Under the pieces are notes generated by a model. The model saw only the letters and a program-made list of their open reading frames with translations. It was not told where the DNA came from and did not search any database. A DNA stretch of 27,820 nucleotides, from positions 1-27,820 of IMG/VR virus record IMGVR_UViG_3300005512_000262. One strand, given 5' to 3'. The stretch is from a virus. Its lineage: Duplodnaviria > Caudoviricetes. Position numbers and translations under genes: made by a program. Every line of letters begins with the position of its first letter. The stretch's first letter is position 1. Below are positions 1 through 11,256 of the stretch, one piece after another.

Positions 1-123
1 CACATATAGACTTGTTGAATGCTTTTGGTGCATCTCAGATTGCTTTGGGAATGGCTGCAGGACTTCAGAAGTGGGAGAAGAACCGATGACTGAACAACTG
101 ATGATTGAAGTATTGACTGGCCC
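1..123. repeat. Terminal direct repeat (circular assembly overlap), left copy
   Basis: Bases 1-123 (cacatataga...gactggccc) are identical to 27698-27820. The endolysin stop and holin start (ATGA) read through the junction. Confidence 0.97.
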
Positions 124-367
124 TGTTGCTGCATTGGGTCTATGTGTCGTGTGTTTGTATGCAATTGCAAAGTGGGTGGGTGCAAATGTTCCAGTATGGG
201 TGAACAGACACTTGGACCAGTTGGACAAGATTGTTGACTCACACAATCAAGACCGCGAAATGTACCGCGAATCATTGGGCACTTTGACAATCAGCCTGCA
301 AGAGTTGAACAAAGAAGTGGATGTTATCAAAGATGATGTGAAGGAAATCAAGATTGCATTGAAGTAG
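86..367 (+). CDS. Putative holin (single TM helix plus coiled coil, BhlA-like architecture)
   Basis: ATG at 86 overlaps the endolysin stop (ATGA) across the circular junction. Hydrophobic segment VLTGPVAALGLCVVCLYAIAKWVG is followed by a heptad-rich tail. Confidence 0.6.
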   Translation: MTEQLMIEVLTGPVAALGLCVVCLYAIAKWVGANVPVWVNRHLDQLDKIVDSHNQDREMYRESLGTLTISLQELNKEVDVIKDDVKEIKIALK

Positions 368-419
368 TAATTGTTTTTACATAAGAAAGGCCATATGTAA
401 AGATTTTAGACTTTTCTTA

Positions 420-944
420 TCAGAATGAATCTATAATCTTTTCAACCCATTCATCCAATCCCCAGTCATAAAATGAAACGCGCTTGAACCAGGTGTAGTC
501 ATTCTGATTTCTGATTGTAAACTTGTGCAGGCCTTCAAAGTGTTTGTCTACAACATCCAGCAATCTGATTGTTGGGACCATAGCAATGTATGACTTGTCA
601 TTGTAAAAGAAGCCTTCAATTGTCCAGTCACTGAGAAGACCACCATTGTGAAAAGCATCCATTCTACTACCCAGTTCCAATTTTCTGAATGGGTCGCTGG
701 TCCTTTTCCATCTCAAGGTGAAATGACTTTTGGGGTGGGACATCCAAACACGCGCTGCAATGGTTGTGATTGATGCACCATTGACAACCACATAGTCAAT
801 GCCATGTTCATAGTCCAATGGTTGTTCATTGCACGAGTGCCACACTCCAGGAAACTTATCTTGCACCAATGGCAGAAGATATTTTTCAAAGTTCTGTTCT
901 CCACGTGTCATGCGCTGCTTTCGGTTCATTATTGGATTTGTCAT
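420..944 (-). CDS. Hypothetical protein, possible PD-(D/E)xK restriction-endonuclease-like fold
   Basis: Start moved to ATG 944 (MTNPIMN), since the upstream extension crosses the promoter region. LDYEHGIDYVVV...TIAARV resembles the nuclease core, but the (D/E)xK is not canonical. Confidence 0.45.
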   Translation of the reverse strand: MTNPIMNRKQRMTRGEQNFEKYLLPLVQDKFPGVWHSCNEQPLDYEHGIDYVVVNGASITTIAARVWMSHPKSHFTLRWKRTSDPFRKLELGSRMDAFHNGGLLSDWTIEGFFYNDKSYIAMVPTIRLLDVVDKHFEGLHKFTIRNQNDYTWFKRVSFYDWGLDEWVEKIIDSF

Positions 945-950
945 GGAAAT

Positions 951-959
951 ACTATAACA
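951..959 (-). promoter_or_regulatory. Extended -10 promoter (TGtTATAGT) for the leftward gene, probably leaderless
   Basis: Minus strand reads gatgTGtTATAGTatttccATG, with no Shine-Dalgarno. Confidence 0.55.
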
Positions 960-984
960 CATCGAAAATAAAATAAAAAAAGTG

Positions 985-1013
985 TTGACATATGTGAACG
1001 AACAGTGCATAAT
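985..1013 (+). promoter_or_regulatory. Sigma70-type early promoter
   Basis: TTGACA (985-990), 17 bp spacer, CATAAT (1008-1013), with an A-rich UP-like tract upstream. Confidence 0.8.
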
Positions 1014-1060
1014 CATAAACAGATGGACAAACTATCTGACAACAATCAATGAGGTACAAC

Positions 1061-1411
1061 ATGACACAATCAATCAAAAATAACATTACATACAATAAGG
1101 GTGAAACGGTCAAAGCGGGAAAAAAAACAAAACACATTATGCTTGTTGGAAATGTTGAACATGTTCGCACAAGTTTAACAGAATACAAATATGGTGTAGT
1201 GGTTGAGTTTTTCAGTAGTTCATTTGTAATTTGCAGTAAAAACCCAATTACTGAAGGTCGAATCAAAAGTGAACCATATCAGGGGTTAACAAGTTTAATT
1301 GGTGCACCATGGAATCAAAAAAGTAGAATCAAACGTGAAAACAAACAACTTGTTAACCAATGGATTGAAAATGGTGATTTAAAAATGAACTTCTTCACAT
1401 TCAATCAATAA
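1061..1411 (+). CDS. Hypothetical early protein (AT-rich)
   Basis: RBS GAGGTAC at 1051-1057 fixes the start at 1061 (MTQSIKNN). Confidence 0.75.
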   Translation: MTQSIKNNITYNKGETVKAGKKTKHIMLVGNVEHVRTSLTEYKYGVVVEFFSSSFVICSKNPITEGRIKSEPYQGLTSLIGAPWNQKSRIKRENKQLVNQWIENGDLKMNFFTFNQ

Positions 1412-1418
1412 TCAAACA

Positions 1419-1442
1419 GGTGGGTGGGTCAAACCATCCACC
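1419..1442 (+). other. Intergenic stem-loop without U-tract
   Basis: ggtgggtgg-gtcaaa-ccatccacc, a 9 bp stem with one G-U pair. Confidence 0.65.
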
Positions 1443-1462
1443 ATCAATCAATGAGGTACACA

Positions 1463-1870
1463 ATGAAAAAAGAAATAAGTCGCAGCTACTATGGACAAAA
1501 AATCAAACAATCAAATATGGTATTTGAATACCGCTTTTATGAACTTGATGAAGATGGGGACATGATAAACGATAATATAGAATACAGCAACAGAGTCTTT
1601 ACCCTAGAAAATATAGTATCTGTCAAAGATGCCATTCAAGAATGCAGATTTTATGAATGCAATAATATAGAGCTCTTCTGCTGGTCTAATGATGATTCTG
1701 AAAATGAGATTCTACAATTGATTTGTGATGTCTGTCATCTTTGTAAAGATGGGATTGATTGGACATATGATTTACATACTTCCCATGTAGTTTTGTCTTC
1801 TTCTATAAATGTGGCTATGCCTTCCAAAATTTTGAATGATTGGAACACAGCAAGAAAACAAATCAAATGA
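1463..1870 (+). CDS. Hypothetical acidic early protein (AT-rich)
   Basis: RBS GAGGTAC at 1453-1459 fixes the start at 1463 (MKKEISRS). Confidence 0.75.
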   Translation: MKKEISRSYYGQKIKQSNMVFEYRFYELDEDGDMINDNIEYSNRVFTLENIVSVKDAIQECRFYECNNIELFCWSNDDSENEILQLICDVCHLCKDGIDWTYDLHTSHVVLSSSINVAMPSKILNDWNTARKQIK

Positions 1871-1878
1871 GGTACAAC

Positions 1879-1986
1879 ATGAACAACCAAATCAAACAAC
1901 ATCTTGCTGGGACATTATTGGTGACTGGCTTCTTTTCTGCAATCGGATTGACATTTGCACTGCTGTGCATGGCGGTGGGTGTATGA
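1879..1986 (+). CDS. 35-aa single-pass membrane peptide (not in ORF track)
   Basis: RBS GAGGTAC at 1869-1875; translates as MNNQIKQHLAGTLLVTGFFSAIGLTFALLCMAVGV; the stop overlaps the next ATG. Confidence 0.75.
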   Translation: MNNQIKQHLAGTLLVTGFFSAIGLTFALLCMAVGV

Positions 1987-2189
1987 TGATGAGAACACTA
2001 TACATCTTGATTGTTGCCAGTTATCAAGAAGCACACAGTCAAGTATTCTACTGCAGAAGCACTGCAGAGCATTTCATCAAGTGCAGATACAACAGTTCAG
2101 ACAAAACATGGATAGAGTTTGTCAAGTATTTAGAAATCAACCACCCACAAATCAAAGTAACAATACAAGAAATAGGAATGGAACTATGA
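1983..2189 (+). CDS. Hypothetical protein
   Basis: MMMRTLYIL..., ATGA-coupled to both neighbours. Confidence 0.65.
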   Translation: MMMRTLYILIVASYQEAHSQVFYCRSTAEHFIKCRYNSSDKTWIEFVKYLEINHPQIKVTIQEIGMEL

Positions 2190-2419
2190 CATTTGAAGAA
2201 CAGCTGACACAATACCTAGTGGAATCAAAGATGTCTTTGACATATCTCACCCACAAAACATTGATACACAGAACCTACTTTGAAAAGTGGTTTTCTGGAA
2301 TGGGCAGACCAACTGAAACCCAAATGATTCTGATTGTGGAACACTTGCGCAGAAAGCACTTGGACCAACCTTTTGAAATCATGCGCAAACTGTATATCTC
2401 ACTAGGTGACCAGCAATGA
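2186..2419 (+). CDS. XRE/Cro-like helix-turn-helix protein
   Basis: TFEEQLTQYLVESKMSLTYLTHKTLIHRTYFEKWFSGMGRP follows the XRE pattern; ATGA-coupled. Confidence 0.65.
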   Translation: MTFEEQLTQYLVESKMSLTYLTHKTLIHRTYFEKWFSGMGRPTETQMILIVEHLRRKHLDQPFEIMRKLYISLGDQQ

Positions 2420-2646
2420 CATACTTGGACAGAATACACATCTATTTGGATGACCTGGGCTGGACAATGGAAGACTTGCAATGGAGAACAGGATTCAAAG
2501 AAAGCATTGAAGAACATCTTCAGCAGGACAAGATTGACAACTTGTTTCTGTACACAGTCATTTTCACAATACAAAAACAATACCCAAGAGAAAAACATTG
2601 GGAAATCTTTCACAACATATCATTCAATAAACTAGGGAAGGAATAA
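2416..2646 (+). CDS. Hypothetical protein, possibly degenerate HTH
   Basis: LDDLGWTMEDLQWRTG resembles the first XRE helices; ATGA-coupled. Confidence 0.55.
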   Translation: MTYLDRIHIYLDDLGWTMEDLQWRTGFKESIEEHLQQDKIDNLFLYTVIFTIQKQYPREKHWEIFHNISFNKLGKE

Positions 2647-2650
2647 CAAC

Positions 2651-3139
2651 ATGACAAGAACAATCAGAGAATACATCAAAGAACATGGCAGAACTGCAGC
2701 GCGCATGAAGTTTGGTGATAGAATAGATGACATGCCCATTTGCATTGCAGGTAGGGAAGTTGGAATCTTGAAACGATACAAGCACAAAGGCTATCAGCAA
2801 TGGGTTTGGGAAGCATCAGTTGTCTATAAAGATGTCGAATACCAATACATTGACTTTGACAATCAGATTACAGCACTTGACTGGGGATACAGAAAGATTG
2901 AAGCACTGGAGAACCCACAGTTTGGAATCATGCTGCGGGAACAGATTGCATCCAGTTCACTCACAGTTGAACAGATTGCAGACATTGCCAACTGCAGCCG
3001 ATATGTCATATTCAAATGGATGCGCTCAGAGTCATACCCATCCATCACACATCTGCAAAGAATAACCAGGGCAATCAGTCCAATGGGCTGGCCACCTTTG
3101 TTTGATGCTTGGTGTTCTCAGATTGAGATGGAACAATGA
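2651..3139 (+). CDS. Protein with C-terminal XRE HTH domain
   Basis: FGIMLREQIASSSLTVEQIADIANCSRYVIFKWMRSESYPSITHLQRI; RBS aagga upstream. Confidence 0.75.
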   Translation: MTRTIREYIKEHGRTAARMKFGDRIDDMPICIAGREVGILKRYKHKGYQQWVWEASVVYKDVEYQYIDFDNQITALDWGYRKIEALENPQFGIMLREQIASSSLTVEQIADIANCSRYVIFKWMRSESYPSITHLQRITRAISPMGWPPLFDAWCSQIEMEQ

Positions 3140-3546
3140 TGTGGATACTACATAGCCAAGGAACATTTCACGCTAGCCCAGTTGCTTTGGGTCGGCCTAG
3201 AATGTCCAAGTGGGGTGCATACACTCCAAAGAAATCAGTGGAATACCAGCGCAGCATGTTGAAAGAAATAGAGATTGACCATGAACCAATCAATGGTCCA
3301 ATCAAAGTTTCCATGACATTCTGCCACAAAAGGCCAGCAAGATTGAACCGCAAGAAAGACACAGTTGCAAGAATACCCAAGGTCACCAAACCAGACATTG
3401 ACAACATGATTAAGATGCTGTTGGATGTCCTGACAAAAGCAAAGGTTTGGAATGATGACAATCAAGTTGTCTGTGTCACTGCAGAAGACTGGTATTGCAG
3501 CAAACAAGAAGAACCACACACCCAATGGAGGATTTACACGCTATGA
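3136..3546 (+). CDS. rusA: RusA-family Holliday junction resolvase
   Basis: GRPR...YTPK N-terminus and the catalytic motifs KPDIDNMIKMLLD and WNDDNQV. Confidence 0.92.
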   Translation: MMWILHSQGTFHASPVALGRPRMSKWGAYTPKKSVEYQRSMLKEIEIDHEPINGPIKVSMTFCHKRPARLNRKKDTVARIPKVTKPDIDNMIKMLLDVLTKAKVWNDDNQVVCVTAEDWYCSKQEEPHTQWRIYTL

Positions 3547-4418
3547 GAAAACACTGGAGATTTACAACATTCAACGACTTACGAGATACCAGGGCAACAG
3601 AACATGCTATGACATTTGACCAACTGGTAAAAGGTTTTACAACTTCATATGGTAAGGAGTTCACACATCAGAAAGACCAGCTGCCTTTGTGGAGTCCAAC
3701 AACATTTACAAGAATGCGCAGGGCAGGAAAGAACGCAGAGAAGATTTGGTTCTTGGTCTTTGACATTGATGATGGATGCACCACCTTTGATACTTGGCGG
3801 TTATTCCATGAATACAATGTGATTGCACACACATCATTCAGCAACAGACCACACTATCACAAATACAGAATCATTCTGCCATTGGAAGAACCAGTTCCAG
3901 CAGAAGATTGGCCACGTGCAAGCATTGCTGCCAAAGGTGTTTGGGATTGTGTTGTTGGTATTGGTGAACCTGACAGTTCAGCACTGAATGACAGAGCAAG
4001 AATCTATTTCAGATATGGAATACCAACACCACCCAGTGCAGACATGAAAAGTCACCACCCAATGTTTCCAGCAAACTACCATCAAACAGCATGGAATGTG
4101 GGCAGAAACTTTGTGCTGGAGTACCAACACATTGAAATCAAACAACCAGTGCGAAAACAATATATTCCAAAGGTGTATTCCAATGGCAAAGCATCTATCA
4201 ATGAAGTCATGATGGACCCCAGCTTTAGACTTGCTTTGGCGAACAAGGCTGGTGCAACTATCCAAGACAATGAAGCCAGATATATATCTTGCCCACAGTG
4301 CAACAGAAACAGTGTACATTTCAGCATTGACCCATGTACTGGAATCGCATATAAATGGCCAACCTGCAACCATGTAAACAGTTGCGGGTGGTGGGGTCGC
4401 TTCGAAGACTTATTATAA
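3543..4418 (+). CDS. AEP-type primase-polymerase with C-terminal zinc ribbon
   Basis: Motifs LVFDIDDG, HTSFS and KYRIILPL; C-terminal CPQC...CNHVNSC. Start moved to the ATGA overlap with rusA. Confidence 0.8.
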   Translation: MRKHWRFTTFNDLRDTRATEHAMTFDQLVKGFTTSYGKEFTHQKDQLPLWSPTTFTRMRRAGKNAEKIWFLVFDIDDGCTTFDTWRLFHEYNVIAHTSFSNRPHYHKYRIILPLEEPVPAEDWPRASIAAKGVWDCVVGIGEPDSSALNDRARIYFRYGIPTPPSADMKSHHPMFPANYHQTAWNVGRNFVLEYQHIEIKQPVRKQYIPKVYSNGKASINEVMMDPSFRLALANKAGATIQDNEARYISCPQCNRNSVHFSIDPCTGIAYKWPTCNHVNSCGWWGRFEDLL

Positions 4419-4459
4419 CCAACCAACAAAACAACATACTGACATCATAGAGAGAGAAA

Positions 4460-5743
4460 ATGACACACTTAACAAACAAACAAAGAACAGAACTACTGAT
4501 TCAACTTGCACAAGAAGCAACGGGTCTGACAGTCGAAGCCAAGGGAAACCCACCTGAAGCAGACATTGACACTTGGGATATGCTGCGCAAGAAAACCAAA
4601 CGAGGGACAAACATTATGATTCCACTGAACTGCAGATGGAACACAGCAAGCATCTTGCGCAATGACCCAAGATACTCCAGTCTTTGCTATAACGAACATT
4701 CAGACCAAATCTTGCTGAATGGTGAGATGGTCAGTGATGTAACCTTGGAGGTCATCGCATTGAACTTCGAGGAGCACTACAGATACAGAGTAACAGACAA
4801 AGCATTGCGTGCTTCAGTCATCATGGTTGCACAAGAAAGAGCCATTGAACCCATCAAAGAATGGTTGCTGGACTTGCCTGAATGGGATGGTGAACACAGG
4901 ATTGAACCATTCTTTCAGAATGTATTGAATGCCAAGACTCCAGAAGCATGTGAAGAACTGATGGTTGAACTGAGTTGCAAGTGGTTCATCTCATGTGTGG
5001 CCAGAGTCATGAAACCTGGATGCAAGATGGATACTTGTCTTGTGTTGGTTGGTTCCAAAGGAATGCGCAAGTCAACTGCATTGAAACTGTTGGCAGGTGA
5101 AGAATGGTTTTCTGATTCCAATATCAACATCTCACACAAAGATTCATATGAACTGTTACACCAGTCAGGTGTTTGGATTTGGGAACTGGCAGAAATGCAC
5201 GCGCTGCAAGGAAAGACAGCTGCGAATGCAAAACAGTTTCTGACTTCAGCAAGTGACAGATACAGACCAGCCTATGCAAAGATGCCCATTCAAAGACAAA
5301 GAAGAACAGTATTCACAGCATCCACCAATGATTACCAGTTTCTGAGTGATGGTCCTGAACGAAGGTTTTGGATTGTCGATATCACAAAGAAGATTGACAC
5401 AGAATACATTGTGAACAACAGAACTCAATTGTGGGCAGAAGCATTGCACTGGTACAATCAAGGAATCAAGTGGTGGTTGGAAGAAGACAGTGAAGACAGA
5501 TTGATGGAATACCAACAGTCATTCATCATTGATGACCCCTGGACAGTCAAAGTGTTGGACTGTATCAAAAGGAATGCAGGCAAGGCAACCACAGCACAAA
5601 TTATGGAGTTCTTAGACCTGTCAGCAGTGAACCAGCACAAAGGATTCACCAAAAGGATTGCACAAATCTGCAGAGACTGTGGATATGAACAGTTCTATTC
5701 CAATACCCACAAATCAAGAATGTGGAGGAAGAAGACAAGTTGA
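4460..5743 (+). CDS. VirE/VapE-family P-loop ATPase (replicative helicase partner of the primase)
   Basis: WDGEHR and PGCKMD motifs, Walker A GSKGMRKST, Walker B WIWELAE, YRPAY, and STND...FLSDGPERRF. Confidence 0.9.
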   Translation: MTHLTNKQRTELLIQLAQEATGLTVEAKGNPPEADIDTWDMLRKKTKRGTNIMIPLNCRWNTASILRNDPRYSSLCYNEHSDQILLNGEMVSDVTLEVIALNFEEHYRYRVTDKALRASVIMVAQERAIEPIKEWLLDLPEWDGEHRIEPFFQNVLNAKTPEACEELMVELSCKWFISCVARVMKPGCKMDTCLVLVGSKGMRKSTALKLLAGEEWFSDSNINISHKDSYELLHQSGVWIWELAEMHALQGKTAANAKQFLTSASDRYRPAYAKMPIQRQRRTVFTASTNDYQFLSDGPERRFWIVDITKKIDTEYIVNNRTQLWAEALHWYNQGIKWWLEEDSEDRLMEYQQSFIIDDPWTVKVLDCIKRNAGKATTAQIMEFLDLSAVNQHKGFTKRIAQICRDCGYEQFYSNTHKSRMWRKKTS

Positions 5744-5767
5744 TACATTCTGTAGATGTGTTACAAT
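5740..5767 (+). promoter_or_regulatory. Promoter for a candidate small RNA
   Basis: TTGATA (5740-5745), 16 bp spacer, TACAAT (5762-5767), with extended -10 TG at 5759-5760. Confidence 0.6.
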
Positions 5768-5773
5768 GATTCT

Positions 5774-5852
5774 GCAGACAGAGATGTTTGTATGTTGTAA
5801 GACTCCTATGGTTGGGACCAGTTCATTCAGGTGGGCTGGTCTTTTTCTTTTT
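5774..5852 (+). ncRNA. Candidate ~80 nt small regulatory RNA
   Basis: Bounded by a promoter and an intrinsic terminator, with no credible ORF. Complementary to the helicase leader (4419-4446) and contains the anti-SD ACTCCT. Confidence 0.5.
5816..5852 (+). terminator. Rho-independent terminator
   Basis: gaccagttcat-tcag-gtgggctggtc (11 bp including G-U pairs) followed by tttttcttttt. Confidence 0.85.
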
Positions 5853-5908
5853 GGTTTACTTTCCAGTTTAGGTGTCAACTGATACTTTATTTTTACCAGT
5901 TAGACCAA

Positions 5909-6223
5909 ACCAATACACCAAAACTGTGCACCAATACACCAAAACTACACTTAAATACACGTAAATACAGGATACCCATTCACACTTTGCGCTGTTGGTG
6001 GCGGTCACATAGAAAGAAATACCTGATTTTCTCAATGTTGTTTTCTACGTTTACTATCTTTCAGATACCAGTTATTAAAATGTTTCAAAGAATTTTAGTA
6101 TAATAGTATAGGTATAGGGTACTAGATGACTGTTACTAGCGGGTCAAAGTACCAATACAGGTACGTGTATTAACGTGTATTTACGTGTATTTACGTGTAT
6201 TTATTGGCAAAACTGGTGTATTG
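5909..6223. repeat. Putative replication origin with inverted iteron arrays
   Basis: AATACAC-type repeats at 5912, 5933, 5954 and 5964. The inverse ACGTGTAT occurs 4 times at 10 bp period (6163-6200). The core is AT-rich and lies directly after primase-helicase. Confidence 0.7.
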
Positions 6224-6226
6224 ATT

Positions 6227-6568
6227 TCACTTTTCCAGTTGTTTGATTGCACGCTTGACCCATCTTTGTCCATCACTGCCACCCCACAAAGCCCATGCAA
6301 TTGCTGCTTTGGATGTCTTGTCTTGTCTGGCTTTGGATTCTGCTTCTGCTTCTCCATGTCTAGCAAACCAAGCATCCATCAATTTCAACTGTTCCAAATC
6401 AACTGAACCACTGGCCAATCTTCGAGCGGTTCGCATTCCAGTGCCAGGAACTCTTTTATTGTTCTCATCTTTGTATGCAGCGCGATTGGACATTGGAAGT
6501 GACATATTGTATTCAATAGCGCGGTTGGCAATCATTTGAATTCTCTTTGGTACATTGATGGTTGGCAT
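6227..6568 (-). CDS. Conserved phage protein with WxLWGG motif
   Basis: G.RTARRLA...M.AWFARH...IAWALWGGSDGQRW, a domain I recognise from phage head-gene regions. RBS gaggt lies upstream on the minus strand. Confidence 0.75.
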   Translation of the reverse strand: MPTINVPKRIQMIANRAIEYNMSLPMSNRAAYKDENNKRVPGTGMRTARRLASGSVDLEQLKLMDAWFARHGEAEAESKARQDKTSKAAIAWALWGGSDGQRWVKRAIKQLEK

Positions 6569-6602
6569 GGAAAAACCTCTTGTTTGGTGTTATATTTACA
6601 GT

Positions 6603-6938
6603 ATGAGTATATCAGAAAGAAACATTGTTGAACTGGTTTCAATGCTTATGCGTGGCATTGTTTCCAAAGTTCTTGTCAATCCAACAACAGCAGCAGAATC
6701 ATTCCAGAAAAGGATTGAAGAACTGGGTGCAGACTATGCGCATGCAGATGGTATTGGATATGTAACTGTTGATGGTGAAGATGTGATGATGGTACACTGG
6801 ACAAATGATGGAGTGGAATTCGATGACCATCATGAACACCCAATGACATTGGACTTGATAAAAGAAGCATTGAATGTTTTGAATCACATTGAAGAAATCC
6901 AGACAGAAGAAGACAGTGAAGATTGGGAGTGGGTCTAA
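6603..6938 (+). CDS. Hypothetical acidic protein
   Basis: Start moved to ATG 6603 (MSISERN), 6 nt after TGtTATATT; the stop overlaps the next start (TAATG). Confidence 0.7.
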   Translation: MSISERNIVELVSMLMRGIVSKVLVNPTTAAESFQKRIEELGADYAHADGIGYVTVDGEDVMMVHWTNDGVEFDDHHEHPMTLDLIKEALNVLNHIEEIQTEEDSEDWEWV

Positions 6939-7156
6939 TGGCAAAGAGAACAGAGATACAAAACTATGCAATCTCAAGAAAGATTGTGCGGTTGACTCGT
7001 GAAGGATACCCACAGAAGCAAGCAACTGCAATTGCATTCAGAATGTTCAAAGATGGTGAACTTCCATTGCCACCCAGTCCAAAACAAAAGAGAGAGTCAA
7101 GAAAGAAAAGAATGGATGACTATCGGAAGCGAATGACTGCGCGCAGGAGAAGATGA
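6938..7156 (+). CDS. Small basic protein with QAxAIA motif
   Basis: MAKRTEIQ...EGYPQKQATAIA...RRRR; TAATG coupling. Confidence 0.7.
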   Translation: MAKRTEIQNYAISRKIVRLTREGYPQKQATAIAFRMFKDGELPLPPSPKQKRESRKKRMDDYRKRMTARRRR

Positions 7157-7157
7157 A

Positions 7158-7226
7158 ATGTATTACAAGAAACCAAAGAAGAAGAAGACACCAAGCAAAC
7201 CACAGCGAACCCGCAGAAGAAGATGA
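7158..7226 (+). CDS. 22-aa protamine-like basic peptide (not in ORF track)
   Basis: MYYKKPKKKKTPSKPQRTRRRR; starts 1 nt after the upstream stop, with aggag upstream. Confidence 0.55.
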   Translation: MYYKKPKKKKTPSKPQRTRRRR

Positions 7227-7309
7227 CCAATATATTGTTCAAGATTGGGAAGTTCTGAACAGTATTTTATCCACTAGGTACACCATGAAAACACATAGCC
7301 AAAAAATAC

Positions 7310-7400
7310 AGGCCATGTACCCCCTGCGACCCCCCCCCGCACTGCTCTCACCACGACTTTTTTGCGCTACTATATATTTTTTCTCAGAAAAACTGGATAT
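7310..7400. other. Candidate packaging (cos/pac) region
   Basis: The C-rich run cccctgcgacccccccccgc and T-tracts stand out from the rest of the genome and lie in the gap just upstream of terS. Confidence 0.4.
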
Positions 7401-7561
7401 TAAATGGACAGAACTATTCAAGTCATTCCCAAACATTACTTCCAGCAGATTTTCACCATTGATTGTCCAGTATGTCAGAAAAGAATTCTTTTGCGAATCG
7501 AAAAAGTCACTGCTGTCCGATGTGTTGAATGCAAAACTAAACTCAAACTACAAGGTACAAC

Positions 7562-8221
7562 ATGAAAAAGAAAGGAAGGCCAAGCAAGTTCACCAAGGCC
7601 AGGAAAGAAAGAATTGTCAAAGCCATCGAAGCAGGTTGCACTTATGAAATGGCAGCGGATTATGCAGGCATCTCAAGAACCACACTTTGGTCATGGCTTC
7701 GAAAAGGTGAAGACCCAAAAGAAAAGTCATACTGCACATTTTTGAACGCAGTAAAAAAAGCAGAGATTGAAGGCGCGATGGTTCACTTGGGTACAATCAC
7801 CCAAGCCAGTCAGAAAGATTGGAAGGCTAGCGCATGGATGCTGGAACGCAGACATGGATATTCAAAAGACAGACCAACCAGCCAACCAGACCAAGAAGAA
7901 ATCATTGTTTCTGAAAACACATTGGAACTGTTGAGAACTCAGGCAGTAGATTTGAAACGTGGAATGTCTAAAGCTGAAGCATCTGAATCTTGGCAAGCAT
8001 ATGCAGCACTGCAAAGACAACTGCTTCAAGTGGTTGCACAAATCAGACAAGTGGAAGCAGAAGAAGGTCTGCAAGATGAGATGGATGGTTTGACAGATGA
8101 ACAGCTGTTGTCAGAAATCAGCAATGCAATCATTTCTTTGCCACCTATATTGAGACAAAGACTTGAATCTGATATAGGTGATATGGGGAATGTAATACAA
8201 ATAAAAAAGAAAGAGGTATAG
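7562..8221 (+). CDS. terS: Terminase small subunit
   Basis: GRPSKFT N-terminus, HTH (YEMAADYAGISRTTLWSW) and DWKASAWMLERR; upstream of terL. Confidence 0.8.
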   Translation: MKKKGRPSKFTKARKERIVKAIEAGCTYEMAADYAGISRTTLWSWLRKGEDPKEKSYCTFLNAVKKAEIEGAMVHLGTITQASQKDWKASAWMLERRHGYSKDRPTSQPDQEEIIVSENTLELLRTQAVDLKRGMSKAEASESWQAYAALQRQLLQVVAQIRQVEAEEGLQDEMDGLTDEQLLSEISNAIISLPPILRQRLESDIGDMGNVIQIKKKEV

Positions 8222-8222
8222 A

Positions 8223-8852
8223 ATGACAATAGAACTTGTCAATGGTGATTGTCTTCAGTATATGGCCACACTTGAAGACAACAGTTTTGATTTGGCTGTG
8301 GTTGACCCACCTTATGGAATAAAACAACACAAAGGGATTTCATATGGTAAATATGCCAGAGATATACACGTAGAAAAGAATTGGGACAATGACATTCCAT
8401 CTCAAAAGTATTTTGAGGAGTTGGTAAGAGTCTCCAAAAATCAAATCATATGGGGTGGAAACTATTTTTTGGACTATCTTACAAATACTCGATGTATGTT
8501 GGTTTGGGACAAACACAATGGATCAAATCCAATGAGTGATTGTGAGTTGGCATGGACATCATTTTCATCATCAGTACGTAAATTCACATATTCACATATT
8601 GAGGATCACAATCAAGGTATAAAAAGAATCCATCCAACACAAAAACCAATCCAATTGTATCAATGGATATTTGATAAGTATACAAAGAAAGGCATGAAGA
8701 TATTGGACACCCATCTTGGAAGCGGTTCAAGTGCTATTGCAGCACATGACAGTGGGTTGAACTTTGTTGGTATTGAACTGGATGCTGACTATTTCCAAGC
8801 AGCAAAAGAAAGACTGGAAACACACCAACAACAACTGAGGTTATTTACATGA
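8223..8852 (+). CDS. Beta-class N6-adenine/N4-cytosine DNA methyltransferase
   Basis: DPPY catalytic motif precedes HPTQKP and the SAM-binding LDTHLGSGS; GIELD follows. Confidence 0.95.
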   Translation: MTIELVNGDCLQYMATLEDNSFDLAVVDPPYGIKQHKGISYGKYARDIHVEKNWDNDIPSQKYFEELVRVSKNQIIWGGNYFLDYLTNTRCMLVWDKHNGSNPMSDCELAWTSFSSSVRKFTYSHIEDHNQGIKRIHPTQKPIQLYQWIFDKYTKKGMKILDTHLGSGSSAIAAHDSGLNFVGIELDADYFQAAKERLETHQQQLRLFT

Positions 8853-9274
8853 CAATCATTCAAGCAATTGCTTTTGGGCTTCTTGGTGGTGCGTTGGGTA
8901 CAACTGCCATTCATGGCTGGATTAACTCAAAGCGCAACAAACAAGCAGACATCATTGCAAATCAAAATGACACACTGACACAGCTGGCTTCCATCCAGTC
9001 CACACTTGCACTTGGTGAACAGGAGATTGCAAAGCAACTGACTGACACTGATTTATTACAAGTGTCTTGTTCCAAAGAATGGATGAATGACCATGGTGAT
9101 TTGTTGTGTCGTGAAATGTTCTGTAGACTGCAGACACGAGAAGGAGATGGGGCCAGTCAAATAGAATGCAATGAAATCAGCAATATTGAAAACACATTTG
9201 TCATCATTGAACGATGTGAACAGCATGCAATGAGCATTGACAAATGTTTGGAAGTCCTGGAGAAAAGAAAATGA
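8849..9274 (+). CDS. Membrane-anchored coiled-coil protein with six cysteines
   Basis: N-terminal hydrophobic helix, Gln-rich helical region and 6 Cys in the C-terminal half; ATGA-coupled at both ends. Confidence 0.7.
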   Translation: MTIIQAIAFGLLGGALGTTAIHGWINSKRNKQADIIANQNDTLTQLASIQSTLALGEQEIAKQLTDTDLLQVSCSKEWMNDHGDLLCREMFCRLQTREGDGASQIECNEISNIENTFVIIERCEQHAMSIDKCLEVLEKRK

Positions 9275-9564
9275 GGGATTTAATGGAAATATGGCTAGAC
9301 AAGCAAATTGCGAAATCCAACATTTCACATAAAGACTTGGCAGAGAAAACAGGCATTTCACCAACCAGCATTTCAAAGTGGACCAATGGTGTTGTTTATC
9401 CAAAGGTCATTCACTTGGTTGCAATGTGTGAAGTGTTTGCAATGTACCAAGACAGAAATCCCAGACAACTGGTATTTGAAGCATTGATGAACACAGCAGA
9501 AATGAACAACGCACAAAAGCGATGGATGAAAAGAAATGCAAAACGAGAAGCAATTAACAAATGA
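9271..9564 (+). CDS. XRE-family HTH protein
   Basis: NISHKDLAEKTGISPTSISKWTNGVVYP; start at the ATGA overlap. Confidence 0.88.
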   Translation: MRDLMEIWLDKQIAKSNISHKDLAEKTGISPTSISKWTNGVVYPKVIHLVAMCEVFAMYQDRNPRQLVFEALMNTAEMNNAQKRWMKRNAKREAINK

Positions 9565-9608
9565 ATGTCCATGTTGTGGGTGCAATCCTTGCGATTGTCA
9601 TGGGGTGA

Positions 9609-9851
9609 ATGATGAACTTTGGGGAATGGGTGCGAAGACAGGTAACCAGTCAAGGCAAAACAGTTGCATGGTTGGCAAAAGAGATTGGAACAAATCAATC
9701 AGTGGTCAGCCGCTGGAGAACAGGAAGCATACCAAGAACAGAGTATTTCCTGAGGACTTGCACAGTGATTTCGAAGTTATCGCGCAAGCCCGTTTTGCAG
9801 GTCATCCAAGAAGGTGCTTTTTGTATCGGTGTCGTGTTTGATGTCGATTAA
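9609..9851 (+). CDS. XRE-family HTH protein
   Basis: MNFGEWV...KTVAWLAKEIGTNQSVVSRWRTGSIP. Confidence 0.85.
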   Translation: MMNFGEWVRRQVTSQGKTVAWLAKEIGTNQSVVSRWRTGSIPRTEYFLRTCTVISKLSRKPVLQVIQEGAFCIGVVFDVD

Positions 9852-11256
9852 GAATGCAACCAAGAAGATGCGCTCACTGCAGGCCAGAGCGGTTCAAAAC
9901 CCTTTGACCTACTTTTGTCCAACACCACCACAAGAAGCATGGTTGAAAGACACCAGTAAAATCAAACTGTTTCTTGGTGGCAATCAAGTTGGAAAGACAA
10001 CAACTGGATGTGTTGAGCTGTTGCATAGATGTCTTGGAACCCATCCATATCTGAAGACAGACCCACCACCAATTCAAGCATATTTGATAACGCACTCACA
10101 CCAGCAGTCTGTCACCATCCAAGAAAAATTGTATGCACTGACTCCAAAAGGATCGCTGCATCCAGATTGTGAGTTTGTACCTGGTAAGGGCTTCAGAGGA
10201 GTGAACCCAATAGTCAGATTCAACAATGGTTCTATCATATACATAAAAACAGCAAACCAAGGTTTGGGATTGGCCAGTTTTTCGGCTTCGTTTGTGCACG
10301 TGGACGAACCTGTGCCACAAGAGGTCTGGAATGAGGTCGCTGCAAGAACATTGCGCGGTGGGGCAGGTGGTAAAAGTGGAACTATTGCAGTGACCATGAC
10401 CCCAGTGGGATGTGATGTCAGATACATGCAGAAATTGGTGGAAGAAGGTGTCATATCTTGCACCAAAGCACCATTGACAGTTAAAATGACAACTCCAAAG
10501 TTCTGCAAGCCTACAATCACACAGGACACCATCGACCGAATTACGCAGACTTATTTGCCAATAGACAGAAACGCGCGCTTGAACGGTGACTTCGTAATTG
10601 GGATACCTGAAGGCAGAGTCTTTGACTGTTTTGATGAGTCGATGATTTCCAGTATTCCACCACCACCAGCCAACTATGAGATTGCAATTGGCATTGACCA
10701 TGGAAGTCAACCCAACACACAGATTGCATTGTTGTCTGCAGTGAATGCCAGCAATCCGCAAGACCCTTGGGTCTATGTTTTGGATGAATACATTTCTGGT
10801 GCTGCTCCTCCAGAAAGCCATGCCAGGGCAATCTTGGAAATGTGCAGCAGAAACAATGTGCAACCAGCACAATGTCACTGGACTGGTGACAATGTCCACT
10901 TTGGGAGTGGAAAGAATGGAAGTGGTAAAATGTCAAACAGTTTGCTCATGCGCGCCTTTGAAAACATTCTGAGAATGCCCAATTTGCCTTTCAGAATTCG
11001 AACTATCAGAAAGCCAAGATACAGTGTATACTATGGCAGTGCAATGCTGCATTCAATCATGGCCCGAAAACAGTTCTTCATTCATCCAAAGTGCAACCGC
11101 ACTATTCAATCCATTCAGAGATGGACAATGAAAAAGAACCAGTCTGCAAGGTCGCGTGATGAGTGGGGACATTGCGTTGATGCTTTGCGATATTGCGTTA
11201 CTCCAGTTATAGAAAATACAAGATTTACCAACATACCAAGCCATTTGAGGTTCTAA
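9841..11256 (+). CDS. terL: Terminase large subunit
   Basis: PTPPQ Q-motif, Walker A GGNQVGKT, Walker B VHVDE, MTP coupling motif, and nuclease motifs GIDHG and HCVDALRY. Start moved to ATG 9841. Confidence 0.93.
   Translation: MSIKNATKKMRSLQARAVQNPLTYFCPTPPQEAWLKDTSKIKLFLGGNQVGKTTTGCVELLHRCLGTHPYLKTDPPPIQAYLITHSHQQSVTIQEKLYALTPKGSLHPDCEFVPGKGFRGVNPIVRFNNGSIIYIKTANQGLGLASFSASFVHVDEPVPQEVWNEVAARTLRGGAGGKSGTIAVTMTPVGCDVRYMQKLVEEGVISCTKAPLTVKMTTPKFCKPTITQDTIDRITQTYLPIDRNARLNGDFVIGIPEGRVFDCFDESMISSIPPPPANYEIAIGIDHGSQPNTQIALLSAVNASNPQDPWVYVLDEYISGAAPPESHARAILEMCSRNNVQPAQCHWTGDNVHFGSGKNGSGKMSNSLLMRAFENILRMPNLPFRIRTIRKPRYSVYYGSAMLHSIMARKQFFIHPKCNRTIQSIQRWTMKKNQSARSRDEWGHCVDALRYCVTPVIENTRFTNIPSHLRF

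Follow-up and report, generated by a model that had tools for sequence, protein, structure and literature searches.

A candidate small RNA at the end of a tailed-phage replication operon and its lineage-by-lineage complementarity to the helicase leader

The window, that is, the whole stretch of 27,820 nucleotides that was analysed, is a complete tailed-phage genome of ~27.7 kb without a close cultured relative. It has a terminal repeat of 123 nt. Protein-family searches indicate that it codes for RusA, a putative primase, a VapE-like helicase, the terminase subunits, a methyltransferase, HTH proteins (three in this genome), a head protein and an amidase. The search with the major head protein gave a single weak match. 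No tRNA genes were found in the window. Searches with sets of 30, 26 and 17 of its proteins, which took in part of the tail-region frames, matched no integrase or partition gene. No helicase relative above 37% identity was found in the genome contigs searched, and the best matches listed from a phage collection are 30–36% identical. Cultured phages and cellular genomes offer just ~30–37% helicase relatives, and therefore no host is assigned. The source records of some relatives carry marine names. The early genes relevant here are preceded by a predicted promoter.

985–1013, plus strand: predicted early promoter TTGACA-17-CATAAT at the head of operon 1061–5743 (top match, 11/12, in a promoter scan)
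3543–4418, plus strand: putative primase (weak PHROG primase matches, best E 6e-6)
4460–5743, plus strand: VapE-like helicase, final gene of the early operon (PF05272, E 2e-65; phrog_1313, E 7e-76)

A single transcript probably covers operon 1061–5743. One terminator scan gives no terminator-like site on the plus strand from 704 to 5157 and a weak one at 5158, and a second scan gives none ahead of 5815. Within the operon, positions 1879–1986 hold a strong start motif and a frame of ~35 codons with a hydrophobic end, whose stop lies at the start of the next gene; it falls below the cut-off of the open reading frame list. The methyltransferase gene (8223–8852 in the window) shifts among relatives L019, L036, L040, L141 and L142, being found after terS, before the primase gene or right behind the helicase gene. 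The contigs of many relatives stop 1.5–3 kb past the helicase gene, just ahead of terS, where the window (about 7250–7400) has a C-run and T-runs; this region may be the packaged genome end.

Directly behind the helicase gene, the initial annotation had placed a candidate small RNA enclosed by a promoter and a terminator. The locus consists of the following elements.

5740–5767, plus strand: predicted sigma-70-type promoter with -35 TTGATA, extended TG and -10 TACAAT (sequence scan; conserved signature)
5774–5852, plus strand: predicted small RNA of 79 nt with +1 at G5774 (lineage-conserved +1 signature)
5774–5791, plus strand: 5' hairpin of 7 bp with a GAGA loop, from the predicted +1 (predicted fold)
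5783–5816, plus strand: G/U-rich pairing tract (duplex energies; own-leader tests)
5814–5852, plus strand: intrinsic terminator, with its stem at 5814–5843 and a T run up to 5852

On re-reading, the letters of promoter and terminator are as first annotated, with TTGATA at 5740–5745, TG at 5759–5760 and TACAAT at 5762–5767. The -35 hexamer overlaps the helicase stop codon (TGA, 5741–5743). A scan of positions 1–10,000 finds 17 promoter-like sites, with 24.4 expected, so the promoter match by itself is not above chance. The terminator is the sole one with 13 pairs among the 6 terminator-like sites in the same interval, and it likely closes the early operon mRNA as well. The predicted RNA gene is present in one copy, and no ATG-started frame fits inside 5774–5852. 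In the fold of 5774–5852 the linker at 5792–5813 is predicted to be single-stranded and would form the seed. A non-coding stretch with a promoter and a terminator apparently its own is what the class of trans-encoded base-pairing sRNAs would lead one to expect. A search of the window with the covariance models of Rfam 15 returned no match at the gathering threshold, and region 5650–6300 gave 7 sub-threshold matches (E 0.34–7.4). Of 12 sequencing runs considered as RNA evidence, all of them assembled into contigs, 8 were compared with the window. Contigs from three marsh RNA runs and two runs classed as 'probably DNA' contain scattered pieces of the window, not 5754–5860; assembled contigs show neither ends nor strand. 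A lost minus-strand gene with AGGAG as its Shine–Dalgarno (SD) sequence was considered and rejected: the spacing expected behind an SD lacks an ATG, and relatives do not share the feature.

The predicted main target of the RNA lies between the two replication genes.

4419–4446, plus strand: A/C-rich leader between the primase stop and the helicase start (rank 2 of 37 gene starts, -18.0 kcal/mol)

Segment 5783–5815 matches the reverse complement of 4419–4446 in three blocks (5, 9 and 7), and the pairing stops at 4446, 13 nt short of the helicase ATG at 4460; the letters bear out the initial annotation on both points. The target sits directly 5' of an SD-like GAGAGAG, its leader has a predicted mean unpaired probability of 0.88, and 4 ACA triplets occur in 4416–4459. 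On these predicted folds, an open G/U seed would thus face a likewise unpaired stretch with ACA triplets on the 5' side of the SD, the arrangement of GcvB-type RNAs. In the comparison with shuffled controls that had been proposed, the duplex reaches -27.7 kcal/mol, dinucleotide shuffles give about -14 +/- 3, and 0 of 2000 shuffles were as good in each of 4 controls. With accessibility-aware (co-folding) energies, 1.3% of 300 shuffles equal the interaction with the helicase leader. Long loose hybrids prevailed in a plain duplex scan of the genome, which left the helicase leader outside the top 25, and co-folding energies were used instead. The leader is then the 5th best distinct site of 1842 sense-strand windows, with a terL coding site first and the primase start also ahead. 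That terL site lies at 10,696–10,740; nowhere else in the genome is the RNA predicted to bind better.

Such a ranking leaves some room for compositional chance, i.e. an ordinary terminator with a U/G-rich run-up that happens to be complementary to an A/C-rich leader. A/C-rich leaders are common in the window genome, other sites in it outrank the helicase leader, and the elements compared below were partly selected on G+T content. Conservation among relatives and the comparison of own with foreign leaders bear on this account.

The comparison set comprises 196 loci including the window, each retaining an almost complete helicase (identity at least 43%) together with 250 nt of sequence behind it, drawn from five scans of viral and metagenome contigs; 85 are distinct. 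An automatic scan, with a terminator preceded by a G+T-rich stretch as its criterion, finds the unit of promoter, 5' hairpin, G/U-rich linker and terminator in 72 of the 85 distinct relatives (helicase 45–100% identical), namely in 38/41 at 68% helicase identity or above and in 34/44 below. Inspection by eye adds L022, L141, L166 and L039. Across this family of uncultured aquatic phages the predicted RNA is 60–80 nt long. As for the remaining loci, the sequence of L142 ends early and the unit was not seen in L032, L033, L035, L052, L148, L149, L150 and L163. Because it was used for selection, the G+T richness of the tracts is not evidence. The promoter and the +1 signature were not selection criteria and therefore count as support. 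A promoter score of at least 10 is reached by 39 of the 72 elements, which are related to one another; for downstream windows the figure is 8/211, and 4.2% of 3600 shuffles score as high. In an alignment of one locus per lineage (n=24), anchored on the -10-like hexamer (picked from six variants, two by hand), the position 7 nt past the -10 box is a purine in 24/24 lineages, the one before it is a pyrimidine in 20/24, and TTG occurs at -35 spacing in 14–16. A stem begins at +1 in 16/24 lineages, with 3.6 expected. The energy of the 5' hairpin is no better than that of shuffles (mean z -0.45). Where a methyltransferase gene or a DnaA-box-like array parts the tract from the helicase gene (insertions of up to ~1 kb), the promoter moves with the tract.

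When the structure taken from the window is imposed on 13 close relatives, pairing holds in 84.6% of cells, with 10 two-sided changes against 3.9 in shuffles of these related sequences; the terminator has two-sided changes at 3 of its 13 pairs. A covariance model built on these 13 relatives gave 13 matches in 360 kb: one is the copy in the window, and the other 12 are the element at loci that did not enter the model. Of 11 distant-clade elements it recovers 2 (L271 and the genome of L056), both weakly, and for that reason the homology of the distant-clade element rests on position and layout. The model has no match in L032, L033, L034, L035, L052, L148, L150 and L163, and it misses most distant-clade elements in any case. 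About 620–750 nt past the helicase stop, L034 has a different promoter-like site, a stretch that is not G/U-rich and a strong terminator, possibly another small RNA in a clade without the present element. The element is real and conserved, and it is likely regulatory.

Tracts and leaders both vary widely among lineages, which makes it possible to compare each tract with its own and with other leaders such that composition cancels. In 9 lineages, with a random member per 90% helicase cluster, the own leader binds better by 3.8 to 5.1 kcal/mol (-3.8 to -5.1; p<=1.5e-4, 8/8 draws), and in the same draws the longest exact tract–leader run is 2.6–3.3 nt longer for the own leader (p<=2.5e-4, 8/8). 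With 12 lineages the difference at the helicase leader is -4.6 to -5.2 kcal/mol (p=1e-4). The effect is seen only within the 60 nt before the helicase ATG, in the windows that begin at -60 and -40. None of 6 control regions, made up of five coding windows plus the convergent gene's leader, shows it (p 0.19–0.95). Target windows and lineage groups were picked after inspection of the data. In disjoint pairs, hand-picked from a quick-version tree, the own leader exceeds the swapped one in 6/6 close and 3/5 distant pairs (9/11 overall, p=0.033). Covariation between the two sites, which the initial annotation had named as a check, is thus positive in the own-versus-other tests. Short, imperfect complementarity to a distant translation-initiation region appears to have been kept in evolution, as in the sRNA class, and the proposal that a distinct small RNA gene targets the helicase leader gains backing from this covariation and from the conserved promoter signature. 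Compositional chance is scarcely credible as an account of these data: the own-versus-other design removes composition and is still significant, with null controls, and the promoter signature is an additional argument. For the close clade, it is largely refuted.

In the near-identical L001–L003 (97–99%), the RNA is almost unchanged, the leader is shortened and binding is just -10 to -13 kcal/mol; the best sites in L001 are the primase site (rank 1) and the opening codons of the helicase gene (rank 2). A 9x9 fine matrix of near-identical phages does not track the match, own leaders not being best. The own-leader match is no better than shuffles in L011 and L136, and no start region stood out among the best sites in L012, L015, L037, L038, L040, L047 and L048.

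The longest exact tract–leader block measures 11–16 nt in 8 of 14 loci (16 nt in L140, 14 in L117 and 12 in L005, L006, L017 and L019). Such blocks could also arise at the DNA level, as copies of one protein-binding site or as low-complexity repeats kept alike by copying, with no RNA–RNA pairing. Strict Watson–Crick complementarity at 238 of 271 paired positions, the simple repeats that form the tracts in many lineages and the three HTH proteins encoded in the genome would all suit this explanation. G-U and A-C mismatches number 7 and 4, a difference that does not separate the RNA from the DNA level. The match in L137 (TTGTCATATTA) is non-repetitive. However, the orientation is always the one that permits RNA pairing, and the matched block holds a fixed place beside the SD: in 11 of the 14 loci listed it falls at -39 to -15 relative to the ATG, immediately before the SD-like motif. 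A promoter and operator with a terminator directly behind it would govern no gene, and another A/C-rich leader (gene 6568–6230) has no own-genome effect. A match at the DNA level alone is accordingly judged improbable.

The sequences themselves show the conserved layout, the complementarity and the way in which tract and leader match within each lineage. As to function, we consider it reasonably probable that a 79-nt RNA, predicted to be made from its own promoter, pairs with the helicase leader and, more weakly, with the primase start, and so damps translation of the replication enzymes. The RNA would be transcribed from 5774 at the end of the early operon, and its open G/U-rich linker would nucleate pairing with the A/C-rich leader upstream of the helicase ribosome-binding site. 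It would act in trans, and pairing would repress; its likely purpose would be to cap or time the synthesis of primase and helicase. Repression is favoured because the leader is predicted to be open, so that there is no inhibitory structure to undo, and because the site lies where the ACA enhancers silenced by GcvB lie.

The same pairing might instead take place in cis, or involve a processed 3' fragment. The early mRNA, ending at this terminator, would fold its 3' end back onto the helicase leader, or that end would be cut off and bind there, as an OppZ-like feedback once the full operon has been transcribed. The element does lie at the 3' end of the operon on the same strand, and covariation is blind to the difference between cis and trans. 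The long-range stem bracketing the helicase mRNA that was suggested initially appears in the predicted fold of 4380–5860 as a leader–tract helix with about 13.6 expected pairs. However, the conserved promoter, the +1 purine in 24/24 lineages and the hairpin that starts from +1 would all be superfluous for cis action, and the promoter stays with the tract over insertions of up to ~1 kb. Ribosomes on the 1.3-kb frame would presumably impede a stem in cis. We therefore regard this variant as unlikely, with the proviso that cis and trans modes can coexist.

The helicase leader would not be the sole target. When the 37 gene starts are ordered by energy, the primase (-19.8 kcal/mol) and helicase (-18.0 kcal/mol) starts stand apart, and the next, gene 1061, is at -13.4 kcal/mol. 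The primase site was missed in the initial annotation.

3556–3574, plus strand: predicted second target, primase codons 5–11, GGAGATTTACAACATTCAA (rank 1 of 37, -19.8 kcal/mol)

This site is predicted to form 14 bp with the free linker, the 5' hairpin remaining closed, and 1% of 300 shuffles are as good. Its own-genome effect in 12 lineages is -1.6 to -2.4 kcal/mol (p 0.0008–0.018), and the primase start would be a second target, weaker than the helicase leader. The HTH gene at 2651 is marginal (p 0.03–0.10). The initial annotation had pointed to complementarity between the RNA and TACAACAT/TACAAACAT at the starts 1061, 1879, 7562 (terS) and 16,858. The letters are indeed there, but they are the spacer of a common start motif, (G)AGGTACAACATG. 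As targets, 7562 and 16,858 (-10.5 and -7.3 kcal/mol) are ordinary among the 37 starts and lack support; 1879 is unstable between tests (-14.2 vs -8.0 kcal/mol), and 1061 ranks 3 of 37. ACTCCT had likewise been taken for an anti-SD; a general role of this kind is not supported, its letters being restricted to the closest relatives of the window. In the window, its predicted partners are GGAG in the first primase codons and the SD of gene 1061. A general anti-leader directed against every gene was also considered and rejected, as early and late starts differ at no better than p=0.05 and two of the starts are set off from the others.

Genomes of the distant clade carry small HTH-like genes between the primase and helicase genes, the last one abutting the helicase start. 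Here the effect is weak at the helicase start itself and moves to the A/C-rich leader of the HTH-like gene right before it (-2.1 to -2.8 kcal/mol, p 0.001–0.014). Two of the five distant pairs fail to favour the own leader, own exact runs are just 6–8 nt in 9 of 12 lineages, and the control cds700 is significant by the exact-run measure (p 0.002–0.04). In L048, the HTH-like gene, 38 nt before the helicase start, is trimmed to 13 codons, with its A/C-rich leader and a stop at the helicase start kept; this remnant resembles a coupling leader peptide. We put forward only tentatively, and with some doubt, the broader idea that the whole family encodes a separately transcribed RNA governor of replication, with a seed rewritten in each lineage to mirror the translation enhancer before the helicase or a gene coupled to it, and with the primase start as a second site.

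Several known systems invite comparison. In enterobacteria, GcvB is said to pair through an unstructured G/U-rich region with several targets, at C/A-rich stretches with ACA that lie within the ribosome-binding site or immediately before it; its R1 region is described as highly conserved, and ACA-rich enhancers are silenced by it (PMC3879156). As far as that account goes, the phage RNA is similar in that its G/U-rich pairing region faces an ACA-containing stretch upstream of the ribosome-binding site, and it differs in being phage-encoded, in being aimed at its own replication operon, in a seed that changes with the target by lineage and in giving no Rfam GcvB match. OppZ and CarZ of Vibrio cholerae are described as autoregulatory 3'-end sRNAs, OppZ being cut by RNase E and Hfq-dependent (PMC9438474). 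The phage RNA shares with them, on this description, its position at the 3' end of an operon, the use of the operon's terminator and complementarity to an intergenic leader in what is presumably its own operon. In contrast to OppZ, it has a predicted promoter of its own, as MicX-type RNAs do, and extra processing is possible. An origin by RNase E cleavage instead of from such a promoter, which marks the OppZ/CarZ type, is thus not what the phage locus suggests.

P4 CI RNA is grouped with the C4 antisense RNA. C4 of phages P1/P7 is described as an RNA of ~77 nt that pairs by short stretches with the ribosome-binding regions of the phage's own mRNA; it folds into three stem-loops bearing a'/b' loops, is processed by RNase P and acts in immunity (PMC5320573). 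By that outline the present RNA is again a small phage RNA with short pairing stretches against the phage's own ribosome-binding regions, but its predicted fold has two hairpins and no three-stem a'/b' architecture, and it has no Rfam C4 match. R1 CopA and ColE2 RNA I are copy-number antisense RNAs that are encoded opposite their target and fully complementary to it. The phage RNA resembles them in that its predicted target is the leader of a replication protein, and the small gene abutting the helicase in the distant clade recalls tap-repA coupling. Unlike them, it lies on the same strand as its target, at least 1.3 kb away, and matches it in blocks of 9–16 nt. The likeness to plasmid copy-number control drawn in the initial annotation therefore holds as an analogy and fails in that the RNA gene lies apart from the target and complementarity is partial. 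Lambda OOP RNA is described as antisense to cII from the opposite strand (PMC12197685). Within that description it too is a small phage RNA with its own promoter near the replication region, and the difference is that the phage RNA here is on the same strand as its predicted target. By analogy, the best reading is that of an RNA outside the GcvB, C4 and plasmid antisense families whose mode of action, in the replication operon of a phage, would be that of GcvB or OppZ. A literature search that covered few subscription papers found no description of the element.

To our knowledge, few phage sRNAs have known targets, and visible coevolution is rare in trans-acting sRNA–target pairs. The ~24 natural lineages amount to a natural swap experiment with matched and mismatched RNA–leader pairs. 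The system could serve to test A/C-rich (ACA) leaders as translation enhancers outside enterobacteria, as well as RNA-based self-limitation of the replisome by phages, and complementarity within the own genome offers a route to such RNAs in metagenomes without conserved sequence. If the RNA does govern replication, it would parallel plasmid copy-number control with a regulator encoded in trans, and lineage-specific superinfection exclusion could also result.

The RNA locus is followed by a region with repeats.

5914–6223, strand not assigned: origin-like region with a long inverted repeat, TACGTGTA repeats and an A/T-rich centre (sequence; putative origin)

The spacing of the inverted-repeat arms, about 220–240 nt, is kept in many relatives (L001, L006, L011, L288, L038 and L159) though the repeat letters change. 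Cumulative GC skew of the window indicates no origin switch. Several relatives carry arrays of up to 10 DnaA-box-like 9-mers; they lie upstream of the RNA promoter in L019–L025, L126 and L128 and after the terminator in L056, L155, L159 and L272, and are absent in the window. A short transcript at this place might serve the adjacent origin as a primer, through transcriptional activation or as insulation, as was first proposed for lambda OOP, with the leader match being secondary. Adjacency to the inverted repeat in the window and to the arrays in several relatives is in keeping with such a role. However, it would leave the lineage-specific matching to the helicase leader unexplained, the strong terminator would end the transcript short of the repeats, and whether the arrays are upstream or downstream depends on the lineage; we regard an origin transcript as highly improbable. 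If instead the RNA governs replication through the helicase leader, a promoter that abuts DnaA-box arrays in some lineages could link it to the replication state of the host. In L024, one of the DnaA-box-like 9-mers overlaps the -35 region.
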